Source: Acaryochloris thomasi RCC1774 | Lineage (GTDB): Bacteria; Cyanobacteriota; Cyanobacteriia; Thermosynechococcales; Thermosynechococcaceae | Direction of reading: 5' to 3' | DNA: 32,000 bases | Assembly (NCBI RefSeq): GCF_003231495.1 | Contig: NZ_PQWO01000006.1 | Span: forward strand, 180,001-212,000 | Shown: positions 12,767 to 31,722 of the stretch, piece after piece | Position numbering within the stretch: the stretch's first letter is position 1 | How the letters are laid out: each line of letters starts with the position of its first letter | Made by a program: the position numbers and the translations under genes | Notes under the pieces: model-generated | The model's input: the letters and a program-made list of their open reading frames with translations, nothing else | What the model was told of the DNA's origin: nothing | Database searches by the model: none

Positions 12767-12769
12767 GTG

Positions 12770-13954: not shown

Positions 13955-14802
13955 TTGGAGTGCCTTTGCTCAAATAGTAGCCCACCCCAAATTCTGTAAT
14001 AGCTGCAACCGGCCTAGGCGCTCTCAAAATTACGATCTAGCCCTAAGGCGTTATGACTTTGATTTTGAAGGCCAACGACTGCTAAACACCGCCTACGCCG
14101 TATAGGGTGCAAACATTGCGGTTCACAGGAGTCTATGATTAAATATATGACAACCTGTTAAGTTGTTTTAAATTAAGCTGCGCTATCATTCCACGCTACA
14201 TTTTCAGTGATGGTGGAATAGCTGGCTAAAATTTATTCAGCGTGGGTTGGGGGTCCTACACTGATAGCATTCTTTTTTAGGGAGTTCAGTCAAATTGAGC
14301 GGTTGCTGTAGAGAATCGGGGGGTTCTAAACGGCACCGAATCTTTATCACTGTGAAGCTAAGAGACGCTTAGTTTCTAGACTTCTGTCTTCTGGCTGTTA
14401 AGCAGCGTTATGAGGTCTGACTATCTGCCTTAGAGTCTTCTATTGACTCAGTCAGATTGTTCGGTTCACGGGTGCTTTTGGGATTGGAGACCTAATCAAA
14501 CTTAAGAAACGAAGTCTGGGCACATTTTGCCTAAAGCTATCGTCCTTGTGATTCATACTCAACTCCAGGAGTCGCATGCAGGGAGGTCCATTGGGTTTGT
14601 TGTGCGTCCGAGAAGCACGCCGATCTAGAACTAAATGTCTTTTTCCTGTTTAGAAAGTAAAATTAGCTTATTGTCGTTTTTTCGGCCTAATATTGGAGAC
14701 TTCCGTCTGCATAAGTCGGGCCTTCTCCATATCTATATTCGAGCCATCTACCGTTCGAATCATTCTGTTACTTCAAGTAAATGACATTGAGTTTGAACCC
14801 GT

Positions 14803-15993
14803 ATGAAGATTGCTGTAATTGGTGCAAAGGGTTTACCTGCTCAGCAGGGGGGGATAGAACAGCACTGTGCTGAAATATGTGCGCGTATGGCTGCTTGGGG
14901 GCACGAAGTTGACCTCTTTGCCCGACCGTCTTACAACGGGACATCTTGGTTTCATCATGACATTTACCATGGTGTGAGGGTTATCACGTTGCCGAGCTTG
15001 CCCCTCCGAGGAATTGACGCATTCTTGAATTCGGCGCTAGCGGCCATCATGACCTTGAGACGACCGTACGACGTTGTTTTTTTTCATGCCCTGGGACCTT
15101 CTCTGTTCTCCTGGATTCCCAAGCTAGTCACCACCTCTAAAGTCATTTCTGTTTGCCATGGCTTGGATTGGCAGAGGGCTAAGTGGGGTCGGTTTTCAAG
15201 TTTGATGCTACGTCTTGGTGAAAAGACCGCTGCTCACTGCGCAGACGATATCATCGTTGTGTCTCATGCTCTGCAGTCATATTTCTCGCAAGCTCATGCT
15301 AGAGAAACAACCTATATTCCCAACGCACCGGCAAAGTATGCTGACTCAGATCCCAACTTTGCCTATGGACAATCTCTAGGGTTAACGGCAAATAAGTACG
15401 TTTTGTTTCTGGGCAGAATAGTGCCTGAGAAATGTCCAGATCTATTGCTTGAGGCCTTTAGCAAACTGCAGCCAGCCGGCTGGAAACTAGTATTTGTCGG
15501 TGGAGGTAGCGACACCGAAGAATTCTCAACAGATTTGCAAAAACGTGCTACGGGTCGGATGGATATCGTTTTTACCGGTCAGCTAAAGGGCAAGTTTCTA
15601 GCTGAAATAGTTAGAGGATCAGGTTTATTTGCCTTGCCTTCTGATTTAGAGGGTTTGCCCCTAGCGATGCTGGAAGCGATGCGAGAAGGTATCCCAGTTC
15701 TTGCCAGTGATATCCTTGTTCATCAGCAATTACTGGGGCGGGATCGGGGTGTTTTGTTTAAAGCTGGAGATCTTGAATCATGTATCGAAGCTTTGGACTG
15801 GTCGATTAACCATTCTGGCAATTTAGCGGAAATGGCCCACGCAGCTCAGAAACACATTCAGAGACATTACGATTGGGACGGCATCACAATTGAAACGCTG
15901 AACCTATGCTTTGCCCTCCTTGGAAGCAGCCCAGATGTTTCTCTGCCCATTATTTCTACTCAAGGTAAAAAATACTTTAGACATAGAATGTAG
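14803..15993 (+). CDS. Glycosyltransferase family 4 (GT-B, retaining type)
   Basis: 396 aa. N-terminus MKIAVIGAKGLPAQQGGIEQHCAEICARMAAWGHEV (DUF1972-like GT4 start). C-terminal EGLPLAMLEAM E-x7-E motif. Confidence 0.8.
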   Translation: MKIAVIGAKGLPAQQGGIEQHCAEICARMAAWGHEVDLFARPSYNGTSWFHHDIYHGVRVITLPSLPLRGIDAFLNSALAAIMTLRRPYDVVFFHALGPSLFSWIPKLVTTSKVISVCHGLDWQRAKWGRFSSLMLRLGEKTAAHCADDIIVVSHALQSYFSQAHARETTYIPNAPAKYADSDPNFAYGQSLGLTANKYVLFLGRIVPEKCPDLLLEAFSKLQPAGWKLVFVGGGSDTEEFSTDLQKRATGRMDIVFTGQLKGKFLAEIVRGSGLFALPSDLEGLPLAMLEAMREGIPVLASDILVHQQLLGRDRGVLFKAGDLESCIEALDWSINHSGNLAEMAHAAQKHIQRHYDWDGITIETLNLCFALLGSSPDVSLPIISTQGKKYFRHRM

Positions 15994-16116
15994 ATCTAAA
16001 TCGTGTCTCTACCAATGGGTGAGAAGTAACGAGTTAAATATCCCTACTTTCGATATTAAGTGGCTAGTATAGGTATTAGGTATTTTAATTTTTAAGTGCA
16101 GCAGTAAGGTATCTCC

Positions 16117-18228
16117 ATGGATCAGAGTTTATCCCGACTTCCTCTTGTCTTTAGTCGGCATCGATGGTCAGCTTTAGCAGCTTTTTCCGCCGTTATGTGT
16201 GGTCTTTGCCTATACGTGGTTTTTGCGCCTCGTTTATACACCTCTAAGGTGCGCCTGATTTTGGATGGCACGCCAAGCACGAGCGTCTCGGATTTTGGTA
16301 GCACGATTGCTCAACAGCCCGGTAATGGCGCTCTGGCGAACCAAGAAGAAATTGTCTCTTCGAAACGTCTTCTTGAGAGAGCTCTGCAGTCCTATCGTCA
16401 GCAGTGGGATGATCCAGTAGATATTCCACTATCAGTTGGAGAACTCAAGCAAAGCCTCCAGACGGGTATTGTTCCTGGTACCGACATCTTTCAACTGCAG
16501 TATACAAGCTCTGACCCCGAGTTAGCTTCTAGAATGCTCAACTCCATTGCTCAAACAGTTGTGCAAGAAAATACGGAAACAATTCAGGCTGAAGCTAAAT
16601 CAGCTCGTGAATTCTTAGAAGGGCAAATTCCTCAGCGACGTCAAGAGCTGCTTCAGGTTGAAGCAAGAATGAGCAAATTCAAGCAAGAATATGGTTACGT
16701 GACGCTGAGTGCTGAAGGGAATAATAACGAGGCAAATCAGCTATTGGTTAATAGCTATGCCCAGTTAGAAGGTCAAATTCGTGATTTGACGTCACAAATT
16801 CAAGAAGTTGATGCGCGCAATCTGTCTTTGAGTACTTTGACGAATGCAGGCAGCATTAATAATACCTATACTTCGGTTCGAACGGGGCAAGATCCCGAAC
16901 TGCAGAACTTAAAGTCAGCCGTGACAAATTTAGAATCTCAGGTCGCTGCGCGTCGGACTGAACTTACAGATAGCCATCCAATCGTTATTCAGCTTGTTCA
17001 AGAACTGGATGCTGCTCGCACACTATATAATCAGCGACTATCACAGTTGGGAGGCGGTTCAAGTGTTAACATCGCGCCTGAAAGCGCACGGGTAGGTCAA
17101 GACTTATCTGTGCAGTTGATTCAGGGGAAAATTGAGCGTCTGTCTCTCCAAGAAAGATTAGAGGCCGCTCGAGGTAGCATGAAGCAGCTAGAGTCGCGCC
17201 GTCAGCAATTTCCCATCCTAGAGCAGTGGTTCACCCAGATGGATCGACGCAGGGAGGCTCTGTTCAACTCTATCCAGTTGCTAGAGCGCAAGTTGGATGA
17301 AGTTCGAGTGGCTGAGGCACAACTGCTGAGCAACTTCAGGATTCTTGATCTTTCTGAACCCAGCGGCAAACCCAGTGATCCAAATATTCCTGTGGTGCTT
17401 ATCTTGGGTACGCTAGCGGGCGCGGTTCTTTCAATCGGTACGGTAATACTGCTGGAGGCTCTAAATAGAAAGCTTTATAGCGCTGATGAAATTGAGGAGC
17501 TGGTGGAGTTGCCTGTCTTAAGTACATTGCCTCGGCTCTCGAAAAACACTCTCAATTTAGGCGAGCCAGCAAGCTTTTACGAAAATTCAGCTATTTTAGA
17601 AGCGTACCGAGCGTTGTTCAAAGCATTGGAATTTAGAGGTTTGGAAGAGTTCCATACTCTGGTTGTTAGTAGTGCTATTTCAGGGGAAGGTAAATCAGTT
17701 GTAACGTCCTATCTTGCTGCCGTTGCGGCTATGCTCTCTCGCCGAACATTAATTATTGATGCCGATCTGCGACGACCGACGATCCATAAGCAGTTCCAAT
17801 TACCGAATAAATCAGGCTTATCAGACATCCTTTCAGGTGACGTAAGTCTTGAAAGTGCTGCACAGTCAACATCGATTGATAACTTATCCGTAGTCACGGC
17901 CGGTAGTTCCTGCGTTCTCCCCTCCCGCTTTTTTGAATCAGACGGCATGAAGATTTTGCTTGAAGAAGCGCGGAGTAGCTACGATCTCGTTATTGTTGAT
18001 ACGCCTCCTGTCACGAGCTGCGTTGATGCTATGGCGGTTAGCAGCGAAGGATATCCTCTTCTGCTCATTGCTCGACCAAATGTGACAGAGAAAGATCTCT
18101 TAAAGCGATCGGCAGCGGAGTTGATAGAGCACAATATCAATGTTTTGGGTGTTGCTGTGAATGATGGGATCCCCAAGACTGACAGATATTATCAATACAG
18201 GCTAGAGAGCTATCAAGAGACAGCGTAG
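16117..18228 (+). CDS. Polysaccharide co-polymerase / BY-tyrosine autokinase (Wzc/GumC-like, PCP-2a)
   Basis: 703 aa. N-terminal TM segment, a long coiled-coil periplasmic region and a second TM segment (VVLILGTLAGAVLSIGTVILL). Walker A SGEGKS, Walker A' LIIDADLRRP, Walker B DLVIVDTPP. C-terminal Tyr-containing tail DRYYQYRLESYQETA. Confidence 0.9.
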   Translation: MDQSLSRLPLVFSRHRWSALAAFSAVMCGLCLYVVFAPRLYTSKVRLILDGTPSTSVSDFGSTIAQQPGNGALANQEEIVSSKRLLERALQSYRQQWDDPVDIPLSVGELKQSLQTGIVPGTDIFQLQYTSSDPELASRMLNSIAQTVVQENTETIQAEAKSAREFLEGQIPQRRQELLQVEARMSKFKQEYGYVTLSAEGNNNEANQLLVNSYAQLEGQIRDLTSQIQEVDARNLSLSTLTNAGSINNTYTSVRTGQDPELQNLKSAVTNLESQVAARRTELTDSHPIVIQLVQELDAARTLYNQRLSQLGGGSSVNIAPESARVGQDLSVQLIQGKIERLSLQERLEAARGSMKQLESRRQQFPILEQWFTQMDRRREALFNSIQLLERKLDEVRVAEAQLLSNFRILDLSEPSGKPSDPNIPVVLILGTLAGAVLSIGTVILLEALNRKLYSADEIEELVELPVLSTLPRLSKNTLNLGEPASFYENSAILEAYRALFKALEFRGLEEFHTLVVSSAISGEGKSVVTSYLAAVAAMLSRRTLIIDADLRRPTIHKQFQLPNKSGLSDILSGDVSLESAAQSTSIDNLSVVTAGSSCVLPSRFFESDGMKILLEEARSSYDLVIVDTPPVTSCVDAMAVSSEGYPLLLIARPNVTEKDLLKRSAAELIEHNINVLGVAVNDGIPKTDRYYQYRLESYQETA

Positions 18229-18289
18229 TAGCTTTATTGAAGTTGTTTCGTCCTCAATAGGAGTGAGTTTGGCTGTTGCTTAAATCAGG

Positions 18290-19795
18290 ATGAGGGATGC
18301 TATTAGGGGAGATTTTTTTGTGTTACCCGTTGTCGTAAAGCGTTTCTTGAATCCAGCGTTCTGGGTCGTTGTCAGTGTTGTTATTGCGGGCTTGCTGGTT
18401 GGCGTGATTGCTGGCACTTCCCCTTCTTTGCTTGTTGCTGCGCTTGCGGCTCCCTTTCTGCTAGCCTATTTTTTTTGGGATTTTGAGCGAGCTGTCATTG
18501 GCTTATTGCTCATACGCAGTTCATTAGATACTTTCTCTGAGGGAGGAATTCCTGCTGCTTATGCCATAGGTTTAGACGCACTGACGCTGATTTATATCAC
18601 TGTGCAATTGCTGACGGGGCGTCCTGTCAAAACTGACTGGTTTTGGTGGTGCTTGGCAGGGTGGGTCGCATTCCATGGCTTATGGTTGATTTTTCTGCCT
18701 CTAGGAGGATTAGGATTCGATGCTGATCCTTCTCTTCTAAGGATCAGCCTGCGGGAGTGGGTTCGCTGGTTTACGCTTGCGATGGTTTACTTGCTTGTCA
18801 TGCAGCTCAAGGACAGAGTGCATCCGAGCAAAGCACTCTCTCTCATGTTTTTTTCCTTGATTCCGCCTGTTACCTTCGGTCTAGTCCAGTTACTTGCGCC
18901 ATCAAGTTTACCTGAAGAGCTAGTTAGGACGGGGCGAGGAGGGCAGTCTGCCCAACTGGCTGCACAGGGAATCGATATCTCTCGGATCAATGGGACATTT
19001 GGTCACCCAAATACTTTTGCCCTTTATCTAATACTATTTATTGCTTTAGCCTGGTGGAAAACAAACCAATCAAAAAAACGCTGGCCTTGGTTAGCGCTCA
19101 TGTTTTTACTAACGTTTGTTCTTGTCGGGACCAAGGCTTTAGGCGCATTAATAATGTTCTCTATCTTTATCCTGATTCAAGCCTTGACAAAGATCGATCC
19201 GCCGAAACTTTTCGCAAGTGGAATTTTTCTAGTCATTGCGATAGCCTTGTTCGGAAGTACAGAATTTGGGCAAGCCCGTTTACTAGAAATTTCTGAAACG
19301 CCATTACTCAATCCAGAGATTGATGTATCGAGGGCCATTCTGATGCGAGGGAATAGCTTTAACTGGAGAATAGCTCAATGGGTAGATGTTTTAGGTGCAT
19401 GGCGAGAACACCCATTTTTGGGTTTCGGCCTGGATTTAAGTCAATTTATCCCTAAGGAAAATAATTTAGCCCCTCATAACGACTATATCAGAGCGTTAGT
19501 TGAGACGGGATTGCTGGGGCTAGCTGGTTTGCTTACGTTCCTAGCTCTACAGCTCACACGTTTATTAGCTTTACTCAAAGGCTCTCAAGGGCAATCTCAG
19601 CGTAACTTATGCTCGGGATTATTTGCGATTGGTGTCGCCATATGTGTTGGCATGCTTGCCGACAATGTATTGAGTGCTACGCCTTTCTGGCTATATTTCT
19701 GGTCTGTAATGGCGATGGCGGGCTGGGACTGGGGAGACCCACAAAATCCTCAAGATGCTGGTGATATAGATTCGCGAACAATAGAGAAGAGCTAA
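18290..19795 (+). CDS. O-antigen ligase/polymerase family membrane protein (Wzy-like)
   Basis: 501 aa and highly hydrophobic with many predicted TM segments. The Wzy_C-type block NLAPHNDYIRALVETGLLGLAG is present. It sits directly after the Wzc-like gene. Confidence 0.7.
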   Translation: MRDAIRGDFFVLPVVVKRFLNPAFWVVVSVVIAGLLVGVIAGTSPSLLVAALAAPFLLAYFFWDFERAVIGLLLIRSSLDTFSEGGIPAAYAIGLDALTLIYITVQLLTGRPVKTDWFWWCLAGWVAFHGLWLIFLPLGGLGFDADPSLLRISLREWVRWFTLAMVYLLVMQLKDRVHPSKALSLMFFSLIPPVTFGLVQLLAPSSLPEELVRTGRGGQSAQLAAQGIDISRINGTFGHPNTFALYLILFIALAWWKTNQSKKRWPWLALMFLLTFVLVGTKALGALIMFSIFILIQALTKIDPPKLFASGIFLVIAIALFGSTEFGQARLLEISETPLLNPEIDVSRAILMRGNSFNWRIAQWVDVLGAWREHPFLGFGLDLSQFIPKENNLAPHNDYIRALVETGLLGLAGLLTFLALQLTRLLALLKGSQGQSQRNLCSGLFAIGVAICVGMLADNVLSATPFWLYFWSVMAMAGWDWGDPQNPQDAGDIDSRTIEKS

Positions 19796-19802
19796 GCTGA
19801 CG

Positions 19803-20591
19803 ATGAAAAAAGCAGGTTTCTGTGTATTGACGACGCAAAGGAGCGGCTCAACGTGGCTTGCTGAATTATTAGATAGCCATGAGCAGGTCACAATGTTCGG
19901 TGAGCTATTCTTTTGGCAGAGCAAAGAGGTGGAGATGAAAAATAGGGCTAGAAGGCTGAGCTCTGGCCATAATAAGAAAATTAGTATTGGTAAGTCTATG
20001 CTGACCTATAAGAGCTTCAAAGGCAACCGAAGAAGGCCTTGGTCTATTTTTCAATACATTGACCAGCTCAAATTATCTCCTGAACTCGGGGATATGGTGG
20101 GCTTCAAGCTCATGTATAATCAGCTGTTGCCAAGGCCAGAAATATTATTGAAGCTAGCGCTAGATGAATACAAAGTTATTCACCTAGTTCGACAAAACTA
20201 CCTCGATATTTTGATTTCAAAGGCTAGTATGAATCAAAATAGCGTTGTTCATGCAAAAGCCGAGGTTGCGCAAAAACCGGTGATCTTAGATGTATCCTCT
20301 TTGGTTAAGGATCTTTCGATACGAGAGGCGGCCACGCGGGCGGTCAGAAGTACCTTGCGTGCGTTGCCCAACCCTGTATTGGAAATCAGCTACGAAAAGC
20401 TGCAAAGTAGTAAAAATGATCTGCTTTCGTCAGTCATTGAGTTCTTAGGGTTACAGAGTCTAGATGTTGAGTTTGAAAGCGACCTGCGAAAGATAAGTAA
20501 AGGACTTTATCGTGAGAAGATAGCGAACTATGACCAGGTTTGTTGTGTATTGGAAGGTACAAGATTTCAGGCTTTGCTCAAGGATTTCTGA
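19803..20591 (+). CDS. PAPS-dependent sulfotransferase (type A)
   Basis: 262 aa. 5'-phosphosulfate-binding loop CVLTTQRSGSTWLAELL (19830-19856). 3'-phosphate-binding-like IHLVRQNYLDILIS. Starts 7 nt after the Wzy-like stop. Confidence 0.75.
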   Translation: MKKAGFCVLTTQRSGSTWLAELLDSHEQVTMFGELFFWQSKEVEMKNRARRLSSGHNKKISIGKSMLTYKSFKGNRRRPWSIFQYIDQLKLSPELGDMVGFKLMYNQLLPRPEILLKLALDEYKVIHLVRQNYLDILISKASMNQNSVVHAKAEVAQKPVILDVSSLVKDLSIREAATRAVRSTLRALPNPVLEISYEKLQSSKNDLLSSVIEFLGLQSLDVEFESDLRKISKGLYREKIANYDQVCCVLEGTRFQALLKDF

Positions 20592-20629
20592 CGTTCTTTT
20601 TTTTCATGCTGTGTCATGGATTTTGTGTT

Positions 20630-20637
20630 GCGATCGC
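20630..20637. repeat. HIP1 octamer GCGATCGC
   Basis: Exact match read in the sequence, in the spacer between the first sulfotransferase and the first GT2. Confidence 0.95.
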
Positions 20638-20693
20638 AAGCAATATTCCGATTTTTTCTATAGCTTATTTTCGCTAAATCCTAGTTGATTGGT

Positions 20694-21659
20694 ATGCCTA
20701 AAGTTTCGATCATTATCCCAGCCTATAACTCAATGGTTTTTTTGCCAGAAACCGTTGAATGCGTTCTGAGCCAAACCTTTAGCGACTTTGAGCTTTTGAT
20801 CGTCAACGATGGCAGTTCAGATAACATCATAGATTGGACTGCTCAACAAACCGATCCTCGTATTTGTTTGATTTCACAAGAAAATCGTGGGGCACCCATA
20901 GCTCGGAATACGGGCCTTGAACAGGCAAAAGGAGACTATATTGCCTTCCTAGACTCCGATGATCTATGGGATTCAACAAAGCTAGAGAAGCAAGTTTTGC
21001 TCTTAGATAAAAATCCAGACATCGGTGTTGCCTACGTCTGGACACGACTCATGGACCGGCATGGAAAACCGCTAGATCGGGTGTGGGCTTCAAAGGCGTC
21101 CGGGCATGTCTGGAAGCGCATTGCCGTGCAAGATAATATGATTGCTAGTGGCAGTGTTCCTTTGGTGCGTCGAGACTGCTTTAACGTTGTTGGAGGATTT
21201 GACCCTAACCTTCGGGGGCAGCAAGATTGGGATATGTGGGTCCGGCTCGCATCAAAGTATCGTTTTGGGTTGATCCCCGAAATCTTATCCTTTCATCGAC
21301 ACCATCAAAGCAGCATGTCGCGAAGCCGGAGCATGAACGATACAGAGAAATATTCTTTAGAGGTCATTGATAAAAACTTCAGCTCTGCTTCGCCTGACCT
21401 CGTGCATCTGAAACAGAAAAGCTATAGCTATTTTCGTATTGCTCAAGGCTATAGTTATGTTGATAATGGAGAGCCTCGTAAGGCTCTAGGATCCGTTGGC
21501 TCTGCCTTTTCTTTATACCCAAAGGCTGCTTTCTCTCTTTACTTTTTGCGTTTGCTGTTCGCCTCTTTAGTGACACTTCTCTTGGGCGTAGGTGGATATG
21601 AAAAAGTGAGATCCTATCTCCACTCTATTAAGCTCATGGCATTGGGGATTGGCTCGTAA
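20694..21659 (+). CDS. Glycosyltransferase family 2
   Basis: The track ORF starts at TTG 20685; ATG 20694 gives MPKVSIIIPAYN. Motifs LIVNDGSSDN and FLDSDDLW (DxD). Hydrophobic C-terminal tail. Confidence 0.85.
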   Translation: MPKVSIIIPAYNSMVFLPETVECVLSQTFSDFELLIVNDGSSDNIIDWTAQQTDPRICLISQENRGAPIARNTGLEQAKGDYIAFLDSDDLWDSTKLEKQVLLLDKNPDIGVAYVWTRLMDRHGKPLDRVWASKASGHVWKRIAVQDNMIASGSVPLVRRDCFNVVGGFDPNLRGQQDWDMWVRLASKYRFGLIPEILSFHRHHQSSMSRSRSMNDTEKYSLEVIDKNFSSASPDLVHLKQKSYSYFRIAQGYSYVDNGEPRKALGSVGSAFSLYPKAAFSLYFLRLLFASLVTLLLGVGGYEKVRSYLHSIKLMALGIGS

Positions 21660-21696
21660 ACTAAAATGGTCTATATATCACGATTAGTCTCAAGAG

Positions 21697-22716
21697 ATGC
21701 TACCCCCTCTGTCTCTCAACCGTTCTCAAAGCCTCGTTTCTGTGAATAGAAAAATACCAGCAGTCTCAGTCGTGGTGCCCGCCTACAACTCGATGGAGTA
21801 TTTGCCAGAAACAATCTCTAGCTTACTGGCGCAGAGCTATACAGACTTTGAAGTCATCATCGTTAACGACGGCAGTACCGACAATACCCAAGAATGGGGA
21901 TCGCAAATTCAGGACTCAAGGGTTGTTCTCATTTCACAGGAAAATCGAGGTTTATCTGGAGCTAGGAACACCGGCATCTGCCATGCAAAGGGGCAGTACA
22001 TCGCATTTCTCGATGCCGATGATCTTTGGCATCCCAGCAAACTGAAGAAGCAAGTACAGGAGCTAGACAATAACGCCAGTGCAGGGCTGGTTTACTCCTG
22101 GGTGTCTTATATTGATGATCAAGGCCGATCTACAGGGAAATGTCTGCGGAATTCAGAAACAGGGATGATTTGGGACACGCTGATTCAACACAACATTGTT
22201 GAATGTGGCAGTGTTGCTATGGTTCGACGAGAGTGTTTCGATCAATGCGGTCTGTTTGATGAAGCCTTGAAATCTGCAGTGGAAGACTGGGATATGTGGT
22301 TGCGAATTGCGGCTCAGTATCCGTTTGCGGTGGTCAAAGAAGCCCTAACCTACTATCGTCAGCACCCTGGTGGTGCTTCAAAAGACTGGAAGTCAATGGA
22401 GCGCAGTTATCAAGTTGTCATTGAGAAAGCTTTCTCTACGGCTCCAGCAGCCGTTCAGTCCTTAAAGGATGAAAGTTGTGGTTATGCTAATTTGAAACTA
22501 GCGTGGAAACCCCTACAGGCAAAGGAGAAAGATTGCAAACAGGCCATTGAATACCAAAAACGCGCCGCACATCTCTATCCACCCCTGAAATATACAAAAG
22601 AGTATGCACGCTTGAGTATCGCAATTTTTTTAATGCGAACGTTAGGTCCAACCCTATATAGAAATGTTTTAGATACCGTTCGCTCAATCAAAGGGTGGAT
22701 GGTAGGTACATCATAA
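21697..22716 (+). CDS. Glycosyltransferase family 2 (paralogue of the preceding gene)
   Basis: 339 aa with VSVVVPAYNSMEYLPET, IIVNDGSTDN and FLDADDLW. By hand alignment about 58% identical (65 of about 112 positions) to the N-terminal catalytic region of 20694-21659. Confidence 0.85.
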   Translation: MLPPLSLNRSQSLVSVNRKIPAVSVVVPAYNSMEYLPETISSLLAQSYTDFEVIIVNDGSTDNTQEWGSQIQDSRVVLISQENRGLSGARNTGICHAKGQYIAFLDADDLWHPSKLKKQVQELDNNASAGLVYSWVSYIDDQGRSTGKCLRNSETGMIWDTLIQHNIVECGSVAMVRRECFDQCGLFDEALKSAVEDWDMWLRIAAQYPFAVVKEALTYYRQHPGGASKDWKSMERSYQVVIEKAFSTAPAAVQSLKDESCGYANLKLAWKPLQAKEKDCKQAIEYQKRAAHLYPPLKYTKEYARLSIAIFLMRTLGPTLYRNVLDTVRSIKGWMVGTS

Positions 22717-22803
22717 AAGTCTTTTCTAATCTGCATGAATCTGAACGGACTCTGCAGCTTGAGGTACTTGCGTCGCCAATGATGTCCAAATTTTGCTTAG
22801 CCT

Positions 22804-23913: not shown

Positions 23914-24048
23914 ACTTCACATAGATAAGCTGTAGATACCGAAAAGCTCTATGAGTGGCTAAAGTATTGCGTCGGGCCTTTGTTGTAGAGAGGCAATCCT
24001 AAGCTTTATCTTTTTAGTATGCTGTTTCTCCTTTATACCTCATTCTAA

Positions 24049-24846
24049 ATGCCATCATTAAGGAATATATATCTAGGCTGCCGTCAGTTTTTAGGTCCAA
24101 ATACACAGGAAAAAATTGCATTTATACATATCCCTAAATGTGGTGGATCCTCAGTGAATCATGCAATTCGCAGAAGCTTTGGATTGTCTGAGTACTACTT
24201 CAAAAAGAATAGATTTGAGCTAGAGAGTGGTTCCTCTTTAAGAGCATCACTAATTGTAGAGGACGATCTGATGGCTTATCGAGAAAAACTGCTCTTATAT
24301 TATTTGTCAAGTCATAACTGCAGATATATTAGCGGACATTTTGACTATGCTTCAAATGCCTTCGATGAATTTAAGGATGCGTGGAGCTTCATTACAATTT
24401 TGCGTGAGCCCATATCTAAGTGGTTCTCGCAATACTTCTATAATCGCAACAAAAATTTTGGCACTTTTCAAATTGAAGCGACTTTAGACGAGTTTCTCGA
24501 CTCAGAGGAGGGGATTGCTCTGGGAGGAGATTATGTGCGCAAGTTCTCAGGCTTAAGGGGGAGCGATGTCCATCTGAATTGTGACGCTGTCGAGCGTGCT
24601 GTCAGCAACCTGGATAACTTTGCTCTTGTGGGTTTTTTAGAACATCTTGATCGGTTTGTTGATGACTTTGAAGATCTGTTTAACGTGCGTCTTTTTATTA
24701 CAAAAGGGAATGTTAGCCCTGTTGTTAAGTCAAAGCAAAAGCAGCTTGTGACAGATGCACATCGAAAGAGGGTCGAAGAAATTTGTCAGCCGGATACGCT
24801 AGTCTACCAAGCCGCACTGAAGAAGATGGGGTTACTTGAGGCCTGA
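24049..24846 (+). CDS. Sulfotransferase family 2-like protein (type B)
   Basis: 265 aa. FIHIPKCGGSSVNHAI (24127-24153) matches the HxPKxGG(T/S)S 5'-PSB signature. ITILREPISKWFSQY resembles the 3'-PB region. Confidence 0.7.
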   Translation: MPSLRNIYLGCRQFLGPNTQEKIAFIHIPKCGGSSVNHAIRRSFGLSEYYFKKNRFELESGSSLRASLIVEDDLMAYREKLLLYYLSSHNCRYISGHFDYASNAFDEFKDAWSFITILREPISKWFSQYFYNRNKNFGTFQIEATLDEFLDSEEGIALGGDYVRKFSGLRGSDVHLNCDAVERAVSNLDNFALVGFLEHLDRFVDDFEDLFNVRLFITKGNVSPVVKSKQKQLVTDAHRKRVEEICQPDTLVYQAALKKMGLLEA

Positions 24847-24851
24847 TCCAA

Positions 24852-25829
24852 ATGAAGCAATATATTCCTACAGGCTTAAAGCAGCATCTGCGCAAAACGT
24901 TGCGCAAGGTCAAGCCTGTGATCTGGACAAATCTGGGGCCGGTGAGCTGGCGGTTGGCGCGCTCATCTCCTCTGGCATCACCGCCGGTACTAATTTTATC
25001 TTTGCCCCGTAGCGGTTCGAGCTGGGTCGGTGAGATTTTGGGACAATCAGAGTCGTCACTTTATCTCCATGAACCGATTACCCAAACGTATCTTGATCAA
25101 AATGTTGAGGCCGGTCCGAGCTTTTTTGAAATTGACGCCAATAATTTACCCATAGGCTATCGGTTCGCTGCTGATGCGGCTTTCCTCGGTTTACCTATTT
25201 TCCACCATGTGATCGTAAAGTCCCCTTCGCAGTGGATGTGGCGGCAGAACCGTCAGCATCAGCGAGCATTGATCAAAGAGGTTAATCCCTTTGCTCTTCA
25301 ATGGTGTATCGATGAATATAAACCTCGAATCATCTATCTTGTTCGCCATCCGGTGTCTGTGGCTAACAGCTTTTCCCGCATGGGATGGACTGGCAAGCAA
25401 TTTGAGAGTCGGCTCTCTCCGCAAACGTTATCTACGCTGCATCCAAACTACCAAAATTTTACTCACTCTTTCTGGGCTGAGATGGGTGCGCTACAGGCGG
25501 TTACTTTAAATCGGTCGCTTGAGATTCTGCAGAAGTATGACGACTTTACTGTGGTGGAGTATGAGGAGATTTGCGCTGATCCTTTGACTACCTTTCGTCA
25601 GCTTTATAATTTTGCGGGTCTGCAGTGGCAGCAGGCGATAGAGGACCGCATCCTCTCAAAGAGCAATGCTTCTAATCAAAATCGAACCCAGACATACTCT
25701 ACCTCCCGCTCTAGCAATGCGATGATTAATTCTTGGAAAGGTGAAGTTTCTGAGGGTGTGATCGCAGAGGTCAGAGATGCTTACTGCGCTTATAACCCTC
25801 CCTACTATGCTGCGGCTGACGACTGGTAG
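24852..25829 (+). CDS. PAPS-dependent sulfotransferase (type C)
   Basis: 325 aa with LILSLPRSGSSWVGEIL (25005-25025) and IIYLVRHPVSVANSF. Starts 5 nt after the preceding stop. Confidence 0.75.
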   Translation: MKQYIPTGLKQHLRKTLRKVKPVIWTNLGPVSWRLARSSPLASPPVLILSLPRSGSSWVGEILGQSESSLYLHEPITQTYLDQNVEAGPSFFEIDANNLPIGYRFAADAAFLGLPIFHHVIVKSPSQWMWRQNRQHQRALIKEVNPFALQWCIDEYKPRIIYLVRHPVSVANSFSRMGWTGKQFESRLSPQTLSTLHPNYQNFTHSFWAEMGALQAVTLNRSLEILQKYDDFTVVEYEEICADPLTTFRQLYNFAGLQWQQAIEDRILSKSNASNQNRTQTYSTSRSSNAMINSWKGEVSEGVIAEVRDAYCAYNPPYYAAADDW

Positions 25830-26508
25830 GCGGAGGCTAATCAGTGGTTTTGATGGGTTGCGATCTCAACCAAAATATTTCGAGCCGCTTTGATCTCGCT
25901 ATTCTTGATTTCCCAAGAGTTTAAGATCCTACTAAATTTCGCCCCTTGACCAACCCATCTATATCAAAGAGCAGGCATATTTTTAGAGACAGGTATTGCA
26001 ACTACTACCAAGACAGCGGAGAAACGTTACAGCTCATCGGATTAGACTGAAATGTGTCCACTATTCTTCTACTGCACCTAACATAACAGCGCTCGTTTAT
26101 CGCTGAACGTCTTTACTAATGCTCCTAATCCAGGCTACATTAATCTTAATAGGGGGTAGAGATTGAAGGGTAGAATTAAGTTCATATAAAATTTCTGCTT
26201 AGCTTGATGAGGTTTGTTGAATTACGATATTGACGATTGTATCAGAGTTTATTGTCTGAACTTAGTGTTTAGTAAAACTAAACGTTTCGTTCTGATTATT
26301 CCAAAGAGATCTTGTTTCTATTTCTTTCTATGTCTTTGTATTGTTTCGAGATTTGATAGTCTGTATCACACCGGAACCTTGCTTGCTTCAAAATTTTTAA
26401 TAGGCTTGCTTAGAGTATGTTTGGGGCAAGCCTCCGAATTATAGTTGAGCCTTCAGACGACAGCTCAAGTCAATATTTAGAGAGTAAGCACTAAATTAGG
26501 TAACTATT

Positions 26509-27282
26509 ATGAAAGCTGTAATACTGGCCGGAGGACTAGGTACTCGCCTGAGTGAAGAGACCAGCATTAAACCAAAGCCTATGGTTGAAGTTGGTGGCAT
26601 GCCTATCCTTTGGCACATAATGAAAATTTACTCAGCCCATGATATTAACGACTTCATTATTTGTTGTGGCTATAAAGGTTACGTTATTAAAGAATTTATC
26701 TCCAGTTATTTCCTCCGTGTGTCAGACGTAACCTTCGACATGCGAGATAACCAAATGACAGTGCACAATGGTAACGCTGAACCTTGGCGTGTCACCTTAA
26801 TTGATACGGGTGAGTTGACCATGACTGGCGGACGTCTCAAGCGAGTCAAAGAACACATCGGTGATGGCACGTTTTGCTTTACCTACGGTGATGGCGTTGC
26901 TGACATCAATATTTCAGACCTAGTCAGATTTCATCGATCACAGCAAACATTAGCGACTTTGACTGCCGTGCAGCCGCCAGGACGATTTGGGGCGATATCT
27001 CTAGGTGAAGAACAGACAATTATTGACAACTTTCAAGAAAAGCCCGAAGGGGATGGTGCCTGGATCAATGGCGGGTACTTTGTACTCGAGCCACAGGTCA
27101 TCGACTTTATAGCAGACGACACGACCGTTTGGGAGCAGGATCCCTTGAAGAAGTTAGCTCAGAAAAAGCAATTAGCAGCATATAAACACGATGGCTTTTG
27201 GCAGCCGATGGATACTTTAAGAGATAAGCGCGTCCTCGAAGACCTGTGGAGAAATGAAAAAGCCCCGTGGAAAGTTTGGTAA
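26509..27282 (+). CDS. rfbF: Glucose-1-phosphate cytidylyltransferase
   Basis: 257 aa, near-colinear with enterobacterial RfbF as I remember it: MKAVILAGGLGTRLSEETSIKPKPMVE.GG.PILWHIMKIYSAH.INDFIICCGYKGYVIKE, MTGGRLKRV, FTYGDGVAD, PPGRFGA, FQEKPEGDGAWINGGYFVLEP, GFWQPMDTLRDK, APWKVW. Confidence 0.92.
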   Translation: MKAVILAGGLGTRLSEETSIKPKPMVEVGGMPILWHIMKIYSAHDINDFIICCGYKGYVIKEFISSYFLRVSDVTFDMRDNQMTVHNGNAEPWRVTLIDTGELTMTGGRLKRVKEHIGDGTFCFTYGDGVADINISDLVRFHRSQQTLATLTAVQPPGRFGAISLGEEQTIIDNFQEKPEGDGAWINGGYFVLEPQVIDFIADDTTVWEQDPLKKLAQKKQLAAYKHDGFWQPMDTLRDKRVLEDLWRNEKAPWKVW

Positions 27283-27425
27283 AATAACGGCGGGTAAAGG
27301 TCTACCTAGTTTTCTCAAACTTATGAATAAGTAGCATAGCAAACATGATGATGGCTGACTTTCTTGGCCCCATCTATTGATTATCCAGAAATATTTCTCT
27401 CTTCGTCTCAATACAGGTATGACTC

Positions 27426-28433
27426 ATGACTCCGCTGGTAAGTGTTTGCATTCCTACTTACAACGCCTCCAGGCATTTAGAGGACTGTCTTAACAGCGTT
27501 ATTTCTCAGACCTTAACCGATTTTGAAGTTTTGGTTGTTGATAATCAGTCATCAGACAACACGCTTGAAATTGTCAAATCATATGCTGAACGTGACAGTC
27601 GTTTTAGAATTATCGTAAACGATCAGAATATTGGTGCCATCAACAACTTTAATCGCTGTGCTGAACTGGCTCAAGGGGAATGGATAAAATATGTACATGC
27701 AGACGACTTGATTGAGCCCCACTGCCTAGAAAAGCTAATCTCAGCAAAACAATCAGACAGCGCTTTGGTTTGTTGTCGCCGGAACTTTCTCTTCGAACCA
27801 GGTGTCAGTGAAAAAACAGAGAAATACTATCTAGATATCTTATCTAAAAGATCTATCGAAACCCTTTTCCCTGATTCGATAAATATCTCCGCGCGAAGTT
27901 TCTGTAAGGCTACTCTTGAAAATATAGGATTCAATATTGTCGGTGAGCCAGTGGCTGTAATTTTAAATCGCAATGCGTTCTACCGTTACGGTGTTTTCAA
28001 CCGGCATATTGTAAATAAATGCGACGTAGAGCTGTGGACTAGAGTCGCAACTCATACAGGGATTACCCACGTACCAGAGGTATTGGCTACTCACCGGGTC
28101 CATAGTGGTTCAGTAACGACTGGCAATACAGCAGATCGCCACTATAGAAAATCCAAAATTGACCAGCTTATTATTCTGTATGAATTTGTATTGAACCCTA
28201 TCTATGCTCCGTTACGAGACGTTGCCAAAAATTACCCGACGGTAAACTTACAGAATCTTCTTGCTAAAAGCGCACATATCGCTAGGAGAATTGCCGAGAA
28301 AGATACTAGTGTAATGCCTCAATGGGAGGAAATACAGAAGTATTATCCAGCACTTTCGAATATATCAAAGCTCAGTTTTCCCCAAAAAATCACTCACTAT
28401 ACCAACCGATTAGGCAAATCACTGGAGAACTAA
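27426..28433 (+). CDS. Glycosyltransferase family 2
   Basis: 335 aa with VSVCIPTYNASRHLEDCLNSVISQT, VLVVDNQSSDNT and VHADDL (DxD-equivalent). More divergent than the tandem GT2 pair. Confidence 0.8.
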   Translation: MTPLVSVCIPTYNASRHLEDCLNSVISQTLTDFEVLVVDNQSSDNTLEIVKSYAERDSRFRIIVNDQNIGAINNFNRCAELAQGEWIKYVHADDLIEPHCLEKLISAKQSDSALVCCRRNFLFEPGVSEKTEKYYLDILSKRSIETLFPDSINISARSFCKATLENIGFNIVGEPVAVILNRNAFYRYGVFNRHIVNKCDVELWTRVATHTGITHVPEVLATHRVHSGSVTTGNTADRHYRKSKIDQLIILYEFVLNPIYAPLRDVAKNYPTVNLQNLLAKSAHIARRIAEKDTSVMPQWEEIQKYYPALSNISKLSFPQKITHYTNRLGKSLEN

Positions 28434-29215
28434 GCTTCATGTAGTCTGCTCGATAAAAATACATAACTGCAATGTTTGCACCATAGGCAAGAGATCATGG
28501 ACCAATTTCAGAGCTGCTTTATAACTGATATTAAAATCTTCAGCTCATCTGTTAGGAAAAGAGAAAGCTGATGTGACAAAGGCTGTGGAATTCTCAGATT
28601 GAAAAAAAAGATGATAGATTTGATTGAAAATAAAAAGTAGGTGATGTTTCTGACTCCATCCGTAAGATAGGCTTAAAATATTTATAGAGAACCATCAATA
28701 CTCTTTGGAGTAGCTCGACTACAGTTAGCGAGTAAACACTGCAAAAGGTATCTAAGCTCTTATTACCCTACCTGAAATAAATCCCCAACATATTGAGGGA
28801 AGACTAGCACAGAGCTGTTGCATTGTTCTTTGAGAAAACTCGGATAAGCTCAATATCCTAAATAAATCCAAAGGACACTACCAGCATATATTTCTTGTAG
28901 ACTAATTTATTTGTTGGAGTTTAGTTCTAACCAAAAATAAAAGGACGATATAGGAATATACATGTTCTTGTTCTGCAATAATTCGAGTATCTGAGAATCA
29001 TCTTTAGTATTGGCTAATAGCAAGGGTACTAGATTGCATGCTAGGGATTAAAATCGTCAGCATAATCTGGATTTTTGCACCACAGGTTGATGGTTTGCGG
29101 GTGGGATTCTCAATTTAAATCACATGTAAAAAATACTTCAACTAAGGAGCATTCTATATTCTTAACAGGGCATTCATTCTGTAAAACGCCATGACAAAGG
29201 ATCTTCTTCTATATA

Positions 29216-30304
29216 ATGATTAGAAAATACTATAAATCCCTGTTAATAATGAGTCTGTCATTTTTAGGTGCAAGCGCTCTTCTGAAAACTGCACTATCTA
29301 AATTTGCTCCTGAACCTATTGTTCGGACTTACACAGTTAAGATGGCAGAGTTTGAGAAAGCACCCAATCAATACAAAATTCTCTTTGTGGGCTCCAGTCA
29401 TATTCACTACCATCTTATGCCCGATCAATTTGACTCACACGCGCGTAGTCAAGGGTTCTCTTTCCAGTCTTTTAATATGGGTAGCCCAAATTTAGATAGA
29501 ATGGAAACGAATGCGTTAGTCAAAAGAATTATAAGTTCAGGTCCAGAAAATCTCAAGTATATATTTATAGAACCTAGATCTTTTAGCAGCAATTTCAAAA
29601 ATCCAGATAGCCTCCGAGCAGTCTATTTTCATAATCATGAAAATACAGCATTTCTGCTGGACTATATTGTCCGATCTAGCCTAGAATTTGATGAAAAATT
29701 TCTAAGAATAAAAAGTGCGATTCAATCATTCAGTATAAACTTTTTCAATATAGGAGATCTACATAAAGGACTGACTCAAGGTGCAACGAATAAGCTTGAT
29801 GTTTATTCATTAGGGCCTCAGAAGAATGGCTTTGCAGAAATGAAATGGTATTGTCGCCGGGTTGAGGGTAAAGAAGGAAAGGCATGCTTGAGGAAGATTC
29901 AGAAATTCTCAAAAAAGCTTGACGAAGAGAATGATTTTTATCGTTCAGCTCAGACAGAGTACAATAAATCATTACGTGGCACCGAGCCTTTTTCAAAGTA
30001 TCAAATACAATCTTTAGTTGATCTCTCTAATACTCTAAAGGAACAAGGCATAACGGCGATATTTTTAAATACCCCTGCTGTATACGGAGGGAATGATCAG
30101 AGTATTGCTTTCAAGCTAGCATATAAAAGAGATACTCCCCCCATACATATCTTGGACTATAATGATCCTTCTCAATTTCCAAGTCTTTTTCAAGAGGATC
30201 TATGGTATGACAACACTCATCTTAATCAGCAAGGTGCTCAGCTCTTAACACAGTATATAGCGAGTGATTTCTTGAAAAAATTTAGCGCGAGTCTGGAAGA
30301 GTGA
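29216..30304 (+). CDS. Membrane-anchored SGNH/GDSL-like protein, probable partner of the MBOAT acyltransferase
   Basis: 362 aa with an N-terminal hydrophobic anchor (SLLIMSLSFLGASALL). Four SGNH-like blocks in order: ILFVGSSHI (block I Ser, near 29390), FNMGSPN (block II Gly), VYGGNDQS (block III GxND), WYDNTHLNQQGAQ (block V DxxH). Its stop overlaps the MBOAT start. Confidence 0.55.
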   Translation: MIRKYYKSLLIMSLSFLGASALLKTALSKFAPEPIVRTYTVKMAEFEKAPNQYKILFVGSSHIHYHLMPDQFDSHARSQGFSFQSFNMGSPNLDRMETNALVKRIISSGPENLKYIFIEPRSFSSNFKNPDSLRAVYFHNHENTAFLLDYIVRSSLEFDEKFLRIKSAIQSFSINFFNIGDLHKGLTQGATNKLDVYSLGPQKNGFAEMKWYCRRVEGKEGKACLRKIQKFSKKLDEENDFYRSAQTEYNKSLRGTEPFSKYQIQSLVDLSNTLKEQGITAIFLNTPAVYGGNDQSIAFKLAYKRDTPPIHILDYNDPSQFPSLFQEDLWYDNTHLNQQGAQLLTQYIASDFLKKFSASLEE

Positions 30305-31722
30305 TTTTTACAGAGTTCAAATTTCTTTTCTTCTTTGCCGCTGTTTTTTGTGTCAACTGGTTACTGCGGAAATTTGTATTTAGAAAAATATTTCTATTGA
30401 TTTGTAGCTATCTATTTTACGCCGCGTGGGACTGGCGATTCCTCTCTCTAATTTGGATGTCAACAATTGTTGACTATATTCTTGGTCTCCAAATGAAAAG
30501 CGCACCAGATGTTTCTCGAAAGCGCTTCCTATTGTCTATTAGCCTTGTTGTTAATCTTGGAGTCCTTGGCTTTTTTAAATATTTTAATTTTTTCCTTGAA
30601 TCAGCTTTTGATCTTTTAGCTTGGCTAGATTTGCCCACGAGTACTAACTCGCTTGAAATTATTTTGCCTGTGGGTATTAGCTTCTATACTTTTCAAACGC
30701 TGAGCTATACGATTGATGTTTATCGAGGACATTTAGAACCAACGAGAAGCCCTATTGATTTTGCTTTATTTGTTGCTTTCTTTCCGCAATTAGTGGCTGG
30801 TCCCATTGTGCGCGCGAGTGACTTCATCCCTCAGTTGAGCAAAGCGCGATCCTTCGTGACTGTTCCTGTGCGAGCTTGCCTAGTTTTATTCCTCTTTGGC
30901 TTTTTTAAGAAAGCATGTATTGCCGACAGCATTGCACCGGCCGTTGATGCTGTTTATAGCCAACCTTCCGAATATTCTGCCTTTTCCATATGGCAGGCGA
31001 TCTGGCTCTATGCGATCCAGATTTACTGCGATTTTTCTGGTTATACAGATATGGCGATCGCCTGTGCTGGTTTACTCGGCTTCAGTTTTCCGGATAACTT
31101 CAACTATCCATACTTTGCTTCCAATATTTCTGATTTTTGGAGAAGATGGCATATTAGTCTTTCCACATGGCTTAAAGATTATCTGTATATTCCCCTTGGC
31201 GGTAACCGTGGCTCTAGGGGGGGCAGCTATCGGAATTTAATGATCACAATGGTTTTAGGAGGACTGTGGCATGGTGCTGCGTGGCGCTTTATCGCTTGGG
31301 GGGCAATGCATGGAGGCGCTCTTATTGGGCATAAAGTGTATCTGAAACAACAGTCTAGCCACCGGAGAGATCTTGACAAACAAGAAAAATTTATCGTCAG
31401 TCTTCTAGGAACCTTACTGACCTTTACATGGGTCTGTTTAGCTTGGGTATTCTTTCGTGCCGATGGTCTAGATGATGCAATGTCTGTTATTTTCAATTGT
31501 TTCTCTTTTGGTGCAGAGAGTAAGGCTACGCTTGGCTTTGAATATATTCCTTTGCTAATTGGTCTGCTGCTAACTCATTGGCTCAGCTACCGAGGGTACT
31601 TAGAAAGAGCCTTCAGTTCTCTTCCTGGTTGGGGGTTCTCACTCGTTTATGGCGCAGCTTATGCCGTCGTCTTTGCGGCTAAGCCAACAAACTATGAGCC
31701 ATTTATCTATTTTCAATTCTGA
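30301..31722 (+). CDS. MBOAT-family membrane-bound O-acyltransferase (AlgI/DltB/PatA-like)
   Basis: 473 aa and polytopic. Family blocks FYTFQTLSYTIDVYRG, FFPQLVAGPIVRA, FWRRWHISLSTWLKDYLYIPLGGNR and GGLWHGAAW (conserved His). The GTG start at 30301 overlaps the upstream TGA (GTGA). Confidence 0.85.
   Translation: MIFTEFKFLFFFAAVFCVNWLLRKFVFRKIFLLICSYLFYAAWDWRFLSLIWMSTIVDYILGLQMKSAPDVSRKRFLLSISLVVNLGVLGFFKYFNFFLESAFDLLAWLDLPTSTNSLEIILPVGISFYTFQTLSYTIDVYRGHLEPTRSPIDFALFVAFFPQLVAGPIVRASDFIPQLSKARSFVTVPVRACLVLFLFGFFKKACIADSIAPAVDAVYSQPSEYSAFSIWQAIWLYAIQIYCDFSGYTDMAIACAGLLGFSFPDNFNYPYFASNISDFWRRWHISLSTWLKDYLYIPLGGNRGSRGGSYRNLMITMVLGGLWHGAAWRFIAWGAMHGGALIGHKVYLKQQSSHRRDLDKQEKFIVSLLGTLLTFTWVCLAWVFFRADGLDDAMSVIFNCFSFGAESKATLGFEYIPLLIGLLLTHWLSYRGYLERAFSSLPGWGFSLVYGAAYAVVFAAKPTNYEPFIYFQF
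31054..31061. repeat. HIP1 octamer GCGATCGC
   Basis: Exact match read in the sequence, inside the MBOAT gene. Confidence 0.95.

Follow-up and report, generated by a model that had tools for sequence, protein, structure and literature searches.

A Wzy-type polysaccharide gene array with three predicted sulfotransferases and a putative acylation pair in Acaryochloris thomasi RCC1774

Introduction

What kind of polymer would be made by a gene array in which polymerisation functions of the Wzy/Wzc type stand together with three sulfotransferase-like genes and a candidate acylation pair? The question is raised by positions 14803-31722 of a 32-kb stretch of DNA (32,000 nt; the window in what follows) from the marine cyanobacterium Acaryochloris thomasi RCC1774. 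The array is chromosomal, with locus tags around C1752_02338-02346 on a 289-kb contig. An initial annotation, made from the DNA letters alone, had described it as a locus for a sulfated, O-acylated exopolysaccharide (EPS) with three unrelated sulfotransferases, and had pointed to the rarity of such clusters outside cyanobacteria.

We find that the array is probably a Wzy-dependent surface polysaccharide or EPS locus of A. thomasi RCC1774, the product of which is predicted to be sulfated and O-acylated. The array encodes three credible sulfotransferases together with an MBOAT/SGNH-like pair, which makes a polymer of this kind the best prediction. Judged by its predicted proteins, the array is an uncharacterised representative of a known class, the cyanobacterial sulfotransferase-bearing Wzy-type polysaccharide clusters.

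Gene content of the array

The listing of open reading frames (ORFs), their translations and Pfam/NCBIfam searches place 13 genes on the plus strand, all in one direction and all intact, which bears out the gene list and coordinates given for the array at the outset. They comprise two GT4 glycosyltransferases, a Wzc-type co-polymerase/kinase, Wzy, three sulfotransferases (ST1-3), three GT2 glycosyltransferases (GT2a-c), rfbF and an SGNH-like/MBOAT pair:

14803-15993, plus strand: GT4 (GT-B) glycosyltransferase, first gene of the array (Pfam Glycos_transf_1 84.7 bits, Glyco_transf_4 61 bits)
16117-18228, plus strand: Wzc-type polysaccharide co-polymerase (PCP-2a) fused to a bacterial tyrosine autokinase (Wzz, GNVR, AAA_31/ParA; TIGR01007)
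18290-19795, plus strand: Wzy-family polymerase (O-antigen polymerase/ligase superfamily), polytopic (Wzy_C 45 bits)
19803-20591, plus strand: ST1, Stf0-like/Sulfotransfer_3 predicted cytoplasmic sulfotransferase (PF13469, PF00685, PF09037)
20685-21659, plus strand: GT2a, GT2 glycosyltransferase with one C-terminal transmembrane-like segment (PF00535 111 bits)
21697-22716, plus strand: GT2b, GT2 glycosyltransferase (PF00535 143.5 bits)
22804-23913, plus strand: GT4b, second GT4 glycosyltransferase (PF00534 58.8 bits)
24049-24846, plus strand: ST2, Sulfotransfer_2-clan (HS2ST/HS6ST-like) predicted cytoplasmic sulfotransferase, 265 aa (family profile)
24852-25829, plus strand: ST3, Sulfotransfer_1/3-type predicted cytoplasmic sulfotransferase (PF13469, PF00685)
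26509-27282, plus strand: rfbF, glucose-1-phosphate cytidylyltransferase making CDP-glucose (TIGR02623 456 bits, cut-off 300)
27426-28433, plus strand: GT2c, GT2 glycosyltransferase (PF00535 115 bits)
29216-30304, plus strand: DltD-like SGNH-fold protein with an N-terminal membrane anchor (conserved residues and structure prediction)
30301-31722, plus strand: MBOAT (AlgI/DltB-like) membrane O-acyltransferase (PF03062 108 bits)

Spacers within the array are short, except for the two non-coding ones at 25830-26508 and 28434-29215, in which neither credible ORFs nor Rfam matches were found. A tRNA scan of the window found none. The window has no excess of promoter-like and terminator-like sites over shuffled sequence, and for this reason operon boundaries were not inferred from them.

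Three sulfotransferases of divergent subfamilies

All six binding motifs for 3'-phosphoadenosine 5'-phosphosulfate (PAPS) quoted in the initial annotation are present in the translations of ST1-3. ST1 scores above cut-off against three models (PF13469 46 bits, cut-off 27; PF00685 39.2 bits, cut-off 22; PF09037 Stf0 26.8 bits, cut-off 22) and contains the 5'-phosphosulfate-binding loop TTQRSGSTW as well as LVRQN, with the 3'-phosphate-binding Arg/Ser pair in VRQNYLDILIS. ST3 is likewise above cut-off for PF13469 (54.9 bits) and PF00685 (50.7 bits), and carries LPRSGSSW and LVRHP, the latter continuing as VRHPVSVANS. The classification by profile models thus holds for ST1 and ST3; ST2 by itself stays below its cut-off (the scores are given below), and is placed by its family.

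The translation of ST2 contains HIPKCGGSS and ILREP. A family profile, built from an alignment of 22 homologues, matches the solved structures of HS6ST (5t03, E 7.5e-10) and HS2ST (4ndz, E 5.1e-6), with corresponding blocks for the 5'-phosphosulfate loop (HIpKcGG/HIqKTGG), the 3'-phosphate Arg/Ser (ILRePvs..S/MLRdPvs..S) and the catalytic His (GH/HGH). K30, H97, R119 and S127, the residues to be expected, are invariant across the 22 homologues, and 18 of the 22 family members match PF03567 individually. At the family level, then, ST2 is homologous to solved sulfotransferases and has kept the PAPS-contact and catalytic residues.

Pairwise BLASTP alignments among ST1-3 are limited to ~20 residues round the P-loop. 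All three are credible sulfotransferases, but "unrelated" goes too far: they should read as three divergent subfamilies of one PAPS-sulfotransferase superfamily. None of the three shows a transmembrane-like segment or a signal-like N-terminus, and cytoplasmic action fits them for that reason. Taken together, the motifs, profiles and conserved residues support three credible sulfotransferases with predicted PAPS-dependent sugar sulfation.

Public records name ST1 "Stf0 family sulfotransferase" (RefSeq), ST3 "sulfotransferase" and ST2 "Sulfotransferase family protein" (UniRef). The GenBank/RefSeq model of ST2 (PZD73288.1/WP_233501543.1) is 230 aa long and begins at V36, by which the HIPKCGGSS PAPS loop is lost; a further version of 191 aa is also found in public records. 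The 265-aa ORF starts at the first ATG past an in-frame stop, and homologues with 88% and 83% identity match it end to end. Judging from these alignments, the public model is too short and the full 265-aa ORF is needed. As for ST1, the GenBank model (PZD73284.1, 232 aa) lacks TTQRSGSTW and the RefSeq model (WP_110986293.1) is full length.

Could one or more of these enzymes act on something other than the polysaccharide, i.e. a glycolipid, a small molecule or a protein, with its position in the array being incidental? Such a reading could draw on the likeness of ST1 to the trehalose/glycolipid sulfotransferase Stf0 and on a weak match of ST3, in the PDB, to CurM, a polyketide sulfotransferase (E 0.075). 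In addition, a nonribosomal peptide synthetase/polyketide synthase (NRPS/PKS) cluster, whose product would be one such small molecule, lies ~10 kb upstream. We consider this very improbable indeed, given that ST1-3 all lie between glycosyltransferase genes in a co-directional array with short spacers, that ST2 and ST3 stay together beside glycosyltransferases in the close relative L082 (see below), that ST2 homologues adjoin GT4b homologues in several genomes, and that the NRPS/PKS genes are on the opposite strand with unrelated genes between.

Polymerisation and sugar assembly

The Wzc-like protein scores 137 bits against the tyrosine autokinase model TIGR01007 (cut-off 108) and has two transmembrane-like segments. 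Inspection of its translation by eye reveals Walker A, A' and B motifs (GEGKS, DADLRRP, VIVDTPP) and a Tyr cluster in the C-terminal tail YYQYRLESY. The Wzy protein scores 45 bits against Wzy_C (cut-off 31.7) and has ~10 transmembrane-like segments. By these domain scores and the Tyr-rich tail, the array encodes a polymerase and a PCP-2a with tyrosine kinase, as in a Wzx/Wzy-dependent pathway. The three GT2 enzymes score 111-144 bits against PF00535, and RfbF lies above the cut-off of its equivalog model TIGR02623.

These genes might instead build a cell-bound glycan (an O-antigen-like lipopolysaccharide side chain, a tight capsule or another envelope glycoconjugate), the Wzy_C protein serving as its ligase or polymerase. 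Wzy_C (PF04932) is named for O-antigen ligases, the only NCBIfam match of the Wzy protein is a weak one to the O-oligosaccharyltransferase TfpM, and rfbF is classically an O-antigen gene; the reported growth of RCC1774 in suspension, unlike the matrix-embedded strain HCIR111A (PMC6002478), points the same way. On the other side, a PCP-2a with a fused tyrosine kinase and a Tyr tail is typical of capsule and EPS systems and not of O-antigen Wzz, and the same Wzc-Wzy pair is found in the homologous cores of other cyanobacteria. A cell-bound glycan is in our view unlikely.

One further glycosyltransferase gene in the window may belong to the predicted sulfated polysaccharide system:

8981-9778, minus strand: WecG/TagA/CpsF (GT26) glycosyltransferase, outside the array (PF03808 209.5 bits)

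Its product shares 30% identity (E 1.7e-30) with XssN of the synechan cluster of Synechocystis. WecG-like genes that are 55-62% identical to it are found no more than 10 kb from ST2 homologues in Adonisia (L004), Leptolyngbya (L011) and an unclassified cyanobacterial metagenome-assembled genome (MAG; L012). The gene is ~5 kb upstream of the array, with unrelated genes between; by homology and neighbourhood it may be a detached member of the array's system.

The acylation pair

Two-component systems of an MBOAT and an SGNH-like protein include DltB/DltD (D-alanylation of teichoic acid), AlgI/AlgJ/AlgX (acetylation of alginate) and PatA/PatB (acetylation of peptidoglycan). The MBOAT of the array is readily recognised, with the histidine motif WRRWHISLS in its translation and 108 bits against PF03062, and its start overlaps the stop of the DltD-like gene by 4 nt. 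The product of the latter (29216-30304) has no Pfam or NCBIfam match, and none in Pfam even at E up to 10; the UniRef label "DUF1574" was not reproduced in this search. A word-seeded homologue search with this protein gave one non-self homologue, and almost nothing when repeated as a profile. An exhaustive profile search recovered 1,904 representative clusters (at 50% identity) at E <= 1e-3, and 888 at E <= 1e-10. When 50 members of this family were compared with Pfam (E up to 0.01), no relevant model was matched.

In the alignment of these 50 members, G59, S61 and N87 are invariant, and S60, G89, D332, H335 and G340 are each shared by at least 90% of the members. These positions are the counterparts of SGNH blocks I (GSS), II/III (N-x-G) and V (D-x-x-H). 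The family profile gives weak matches to DltD (3bma, E 0.01) and the SGNH domain of OatA (6vjp, E 0.02, across the DxxH block), and the protein has one transmembrane-like segment (residues 9-27), i.e. an N-terminal anchor. An AlphaFold2 model based on the 50-sequence alignment from the exhaustive search reached pLDDT 92.9 and pTM 0.91 (with a two-sequence alignment pLDDT was 38.5, and the model was unusable). In a Foldseek search of the PDB with this model, the top eight matches are all DltD, from four species (probability ~1.0, E 4.5e-4 to 3e-3), followed by classical SGNH enzymes including TesA and PatB.

The MBOAT gene directly adjoins the DltD-like gene in L082, L083, L086 and L087 as well. 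In L082 and L083 the MBOAT gene is downstream with a 4-nt overlap, and in L086 and L087 it comes first, with a 3-nt gap. The DltD-like proteins of L083 (6001-7122) and of L086/L087 (4219-5196 in L086) are distant family members with 23-25% identity. We note that in L086 genes for a PP-binding carrier protein, a MaoC dehydratase and a short-chain dehydrogenase/reductase lie just upstream of the pair; this context hints at carrier-borne acyl donors in some lineages.

The SGNH half of the pair proposed in the initial annotation, for which Pfam and NCBIfam gave no support, is hence confirmed by the predicted fold, the conserved Ser/Asp/His triad and the conserved adjacency to MBOAT genes. The array pair resembles the Dlt, Alg and Pat systems in having a polytopic MBOAT with a His motif and a membrane-anchored SGNH-fold Ser/Asp/His partner, encoded here by overlapping genes. 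The Dlt system also has the ligase DltA and the carrier DltC, whereas no carrier-protein or ligase gene stands alongside the array pair; the AMP-binding gene at 5239-6762 is part of the NRPS/PKS cluster. The array MBOAT scores 169 bits against the DltB equivalog TIGR04091, below the cut-off of 375 that marks a Dlt system proper, and its partner forms a family separate from DltD, with only 10-13% identity. According to the sequence and the structural model, the pair is a DltB/DltD-like two-component cassette without DltA or DltC, with acyl transfer as its predicted function. The DltD-like family is large, found no Pfam match here, and is paired with MBOAT genes in distant bacteria; it deserves a family model.

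Relatives and synteny

A close relative is L082, a 13-kb Logan contig with the order GT2a-GT2b-GT4b-ST2-ST3-rfbF-GT2c-DltD-like-MBOAT; all nine array genes that the contig covers are kept, at 55-90% amino-acid identity, and the DltD-like protein is the least conserved (55%). Past MBOAT, L082 switches to a minus-strand P450 gene, from which we take the array to end at MBOAT. The two long spacers (25830-26508 and 28434-29215) are poorly conserved in L082. Within the otherwise unalignable 680-bp spacer upstream of rfbF, an island of ~45 nt at 26103-26147 (TGAACGTCTTTACTAATGCTCCTAATCCAGGCTACATTAAT) is shared with L082. It has no match in Rfam; a role as promoter or operator of a sub-operon made up of rfbF and GT2c is possible.

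More distantly, the core GT4-Wzc-Wzy-GT2-GT2-GT4-ST2 recurs in the metagenomic locus L001 (36-56% identity; 52% for the counterpart of GT2a), where a gene of the cellulase family stands between the GT4b and ST2 homologues. Core genes are also shared with the Moorena MAG locus L017, except for GT4b; the first GT4 of the array (14803-15993) is 56% identical to the first gene of L017. Homologues of GT4b (42-47% identical) directly adjoin ST2 homologues in the cyanobacterial loci L004, L044 and L048.

Homologues of ST2 were confirmed in at least 300 loci (more than 300), in Bacteroidota, Rhodothermales, Alpha- and Gammaproteobacteria, Planctomycetes and others, and in many of these loci homologues of GT2, GT4 or Wzc stand no further than 10 kb away. 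When genome contigs were scanned with ST2, the best among the matches listed was 46% identical. No link of ST2 to plasmids of Acaryochloris marina was found, as the plasmid matches all belong to genera of Rhodobacterales. One of these loci (L088, at 10910-24747 of plasmid NZ_CP083559.1 of Leisingera sp. S132) contains a GT4, two adjacent sulfotransferases, a further GT4, a Wza-like exporter, YjbF/YjbH and a tyrosine autokinase. One of its two sulfotransferases is an ST2 homologue (32% identity), and the locus is apparently, from its genes, a sulfated-EPS cluster in a roseobacter.

Comparison with the xss cluster and other known systems

The xss cluster for synechan in Synechocystis sp. PCC 6803 (sll5042-sll5060) is on plasmid pSYSM (PMC8205485), whereas the RCC1774 array is chromosomal. 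We took the cluster from pSYSM and compared the proteins of the window with the Xss proteins by BLASTP. Both loci are cyanobacterial and of the Wzx/Wzy type, with several glycosyltransferases, a Wzy, a polysaccharide co-polymerase with a kinase-like domain, more than one sulfotransferase of distinct subfamilies, and a WecG-family glycosyltransferase in or near the cluster. The outer-membrane polysaccharide exporter (OPX) is encoded elsewhere for xss, and likewise there is no OPX within the window of the array. The best identities are 22-30%, i.e. at the family level (ST3 shares 23% with XssE), gene order and strand organisation differ, and no Xss protein was matched by the Wzy, ST1, RfbF, DltD-like or MBOAT protein of the array. 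In addition, xss has a Wzx (XssH), a priming transferase (XssP) and the regulators XssQ/R/S, none of which is present in the array window (no protein of the window matches XssQ, and domain searches of the ORFs gave neither a response-regulator nor a STAND domain). Finally, xss has two sulfotransferases and lacks both rfbF and an MBOAT/SGNH pair, while the array has three sulfotransferases and both of these. The low identities, missing counterparts and different gene order rule the array out as an orthologue of xss, so the expectation that it would not correspond gene for gene to this best-described cluster proved right.

Sulfotransferases of PF00685, PF03567 and PF13469 occur in many cyanobacterial genomes, mostly inside putative EPS clusters (Maeda et al. 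2021, PMC8205485), with 13 in A. marina MBIC11017 and 30 in Trichodesmium. These clusters are of the Wzx/Wzy or ABC type and usually partial (PMC8205485). The other cyanobacterial sulfotransferase EPS clusters compared here (L001, L017 and L004; Maeda et al. 2021) have the same Pfam sulfotransferase families in partial Wzy-type clusters and differ in accessory genes: ST1, ST3, rfbF, GT2c and the DltD-like/MBOAT pair in the array, against a methyltransferase, a cellulase-family protein, an ABC transporter and a pyruvyl transferase in L001.

Outside cyanobacteria, published reports describe sulfated capsule clusters in Vibrio sp. KMM 8419 (PMC11641403) and Cobetia marina KMM 1449 (PMC11766843), and one in Actinoplanes. 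The Vibrio, Cobetia and Leisingera clusters resemble the array in having sulfotransferase genes inside Wzy/Wzc-type polysaccharide clusters, and differ from it in belonging to other phyla and sharing no synteny with it.

With the source being a cyanobacterium itself, the statement that such clusters are rare outside cyanobacteria adds nothing to the case of the array. The premise of rarity is also weak at the genomic level, in view of the survey of Maeda et al. 2021 (PMC8205485), the more than 300 loci with ST2 homologues in many phyla, and the Leisingera locus.

Proposed pathway and its weighing

The pathway proposed for the array draws on what is known of the families; its basis here is domains, conserved residues, predicted topology and fold, and synteny. 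The five glycosyltransferases, perhaps with the detached WecG enzyme, would assemble an oligosaccharide repeat on a lipid carrier, with one sugar possibly derived from CDP-glucose made by RfbF. The soluble, signal-less ST1-3 would sulfate different hydroxyls of the lipid-linked repeat at the cytoplasmic face, using PAPS. A flippase (Wzx) encoded elsewhere would then move the repeat unit outward, where Wzy would polymerise it under the control of the Wzc co-polymerase/tyrosine kinase. An acyl group (most likely acetyl) would be handed through the membrane by the MBOAT, and the DltD-like SGNH protein, anchored there, would receive it and esterify the polymer on the periplasmic side. An OPX exporter encoded elsewhere would release the polymer. 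The priming transferase and the supply of PAPS must, on this scheme, also lie outside the window. The xss cluster shares this logic (glycosyltransferases, sulfotransferases, Wzy and co-polymerase together, OPX elsewhere; PMC8205485), which supports the predicted pathway.

Several observations speak against it. As a single sequence, ST2 reaches 17 bits against PF03567 (cut-off 22; E 0.0069) and has no match in NCBIfam. The Wzy_C model also takes in WaaL-type ligases, and the DltD-like model superposes on DltD with a TM-score of only 0.38-0.41. No gene for CDP-glucose 4,6-dehydratase or a later step of a CDP-sugar pathway was found in the window, rfbF standing alone; GT2c, encoded next to it, may use CDP-glucose directly as donor, or this sugar nucleotide may serve enzymes whose genes lie elsewhere. 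Nor do the ORFs of 100 aa or longer in the 32 kb of the window include a Wzx flippase, a priming phosphoglycosyl transferase or an OPX (Wza). The claim of a sulfated, O-acylated polymer locus of the Wzy/Wzc type is upheld as the best prediction from homology, with the qualification that these three functions are missing from the window; by analogy with the OPX of xss, they may be encoded outside it. Finally, growth in suspension is reported for RCC1774, as against matrix-embedded aggregates for strain HCIR111A (PMC6002478), so that the array may be expressed only conditionally.

Some of the same observations would suit a partial, possibly horizontally assembled remnant that is weakly expressed or silent and gives no distinct polymer in RCC1774: the absence of flippase, priming enzyme and exporter from the window, the reported growth in suspension (PMC6002478), the long non-coding spacers at 25830-26508 and 28434-29215 with their poor conservation in L082, and a drop in GC from ~0.47 to 0.37-0.39 across the acylation module. 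We regard such a remnant as very unlikely: all 13 of the 13 ORFs are intact, L082 keeps the nine genes it covers at 55-90% identity, which points to purifying selection, and cyanobacteria usually have their Wzx, OPX and priming genes apart from such clusters (PMC8205485). As to composition, GC is 0.37-0.39 over 28001-31000 (spacer and DltD-like/MBOAT genes) as compared to 0.42-0.48 elsewhere in the array. Separate acquisition of the acylation module would fit this low GC and the lowest identity of the DltD-like gene to L082 (55%).

Other genes in the window

GC is 0.50-0.55 in the NRPS/PKS region. This natural-product cluster occupies 1-8031 on the minus strand. It includes a hybrid NRPS/PKS frame of at least 1,567 aa that runs off the left end of the window (Condensation, peptidyl carrier protein, ketosynthase, acyltransferase and the start of a dehydratase domain) and, upstream of that frame on the same strand, an AMP-binding enzyme (5239-6762) and an FkbO/Hyg5-like chorismatase (7036-8031). 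By their families, the two enzymes suggest a chorismate-derived starter unit for the NRPS/PKS product.

Between the WecG gene and the array there are an FdhF/YdeP-type molybdopterin oxidoreductase (10220-12451, minus strand) and a 395-aa aldo/keto reductase (12767-13954, plus strand). Weak homologues of the latter (28-30%) are found near ST2 homologues in three Rhodobacteraceae loci, probably by coincidence.

Discussion

The predicted combination of three sulfotransferase subfamilies with a DltD-like/MBOAT cassette is, on sequence comparison, unseen in the other loci compared here, and is not conceptually new. A bolder version of the predicted pathway would have a triply sulfated EPS that is also esterified by a previously undescribed MBOAT plus DltD-like cassette, a general acylation device for diverse bacterial surface glycans that is carrier-independent (or, in some lineages, carrier-protein-dependent), with the array as its first link to sulfated EPS; we hold this to be doubtful.

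The array findings overturn nothing in current understanding. Their practical yields are a corrected gene model for ST2 and the finding that DltD-like proteins form a large family which accompanies MBOAT genes. To our knowledge, synechan is the only cyanobacterial sulfated polysaccharide that has been genetically dissected. If the prediction is true, the product in A. thomasi would be a heteropolysaccharide that bears an ester group and is sulfated at up to three positions. Very few bacterial sulfated polysaccharides have been assigned a gene cluster, and this one would be a useful further case; ST1-3 would then be candidates for combinatorial glyco-engineering as proposed by Maeda et al. (PMC8205485).

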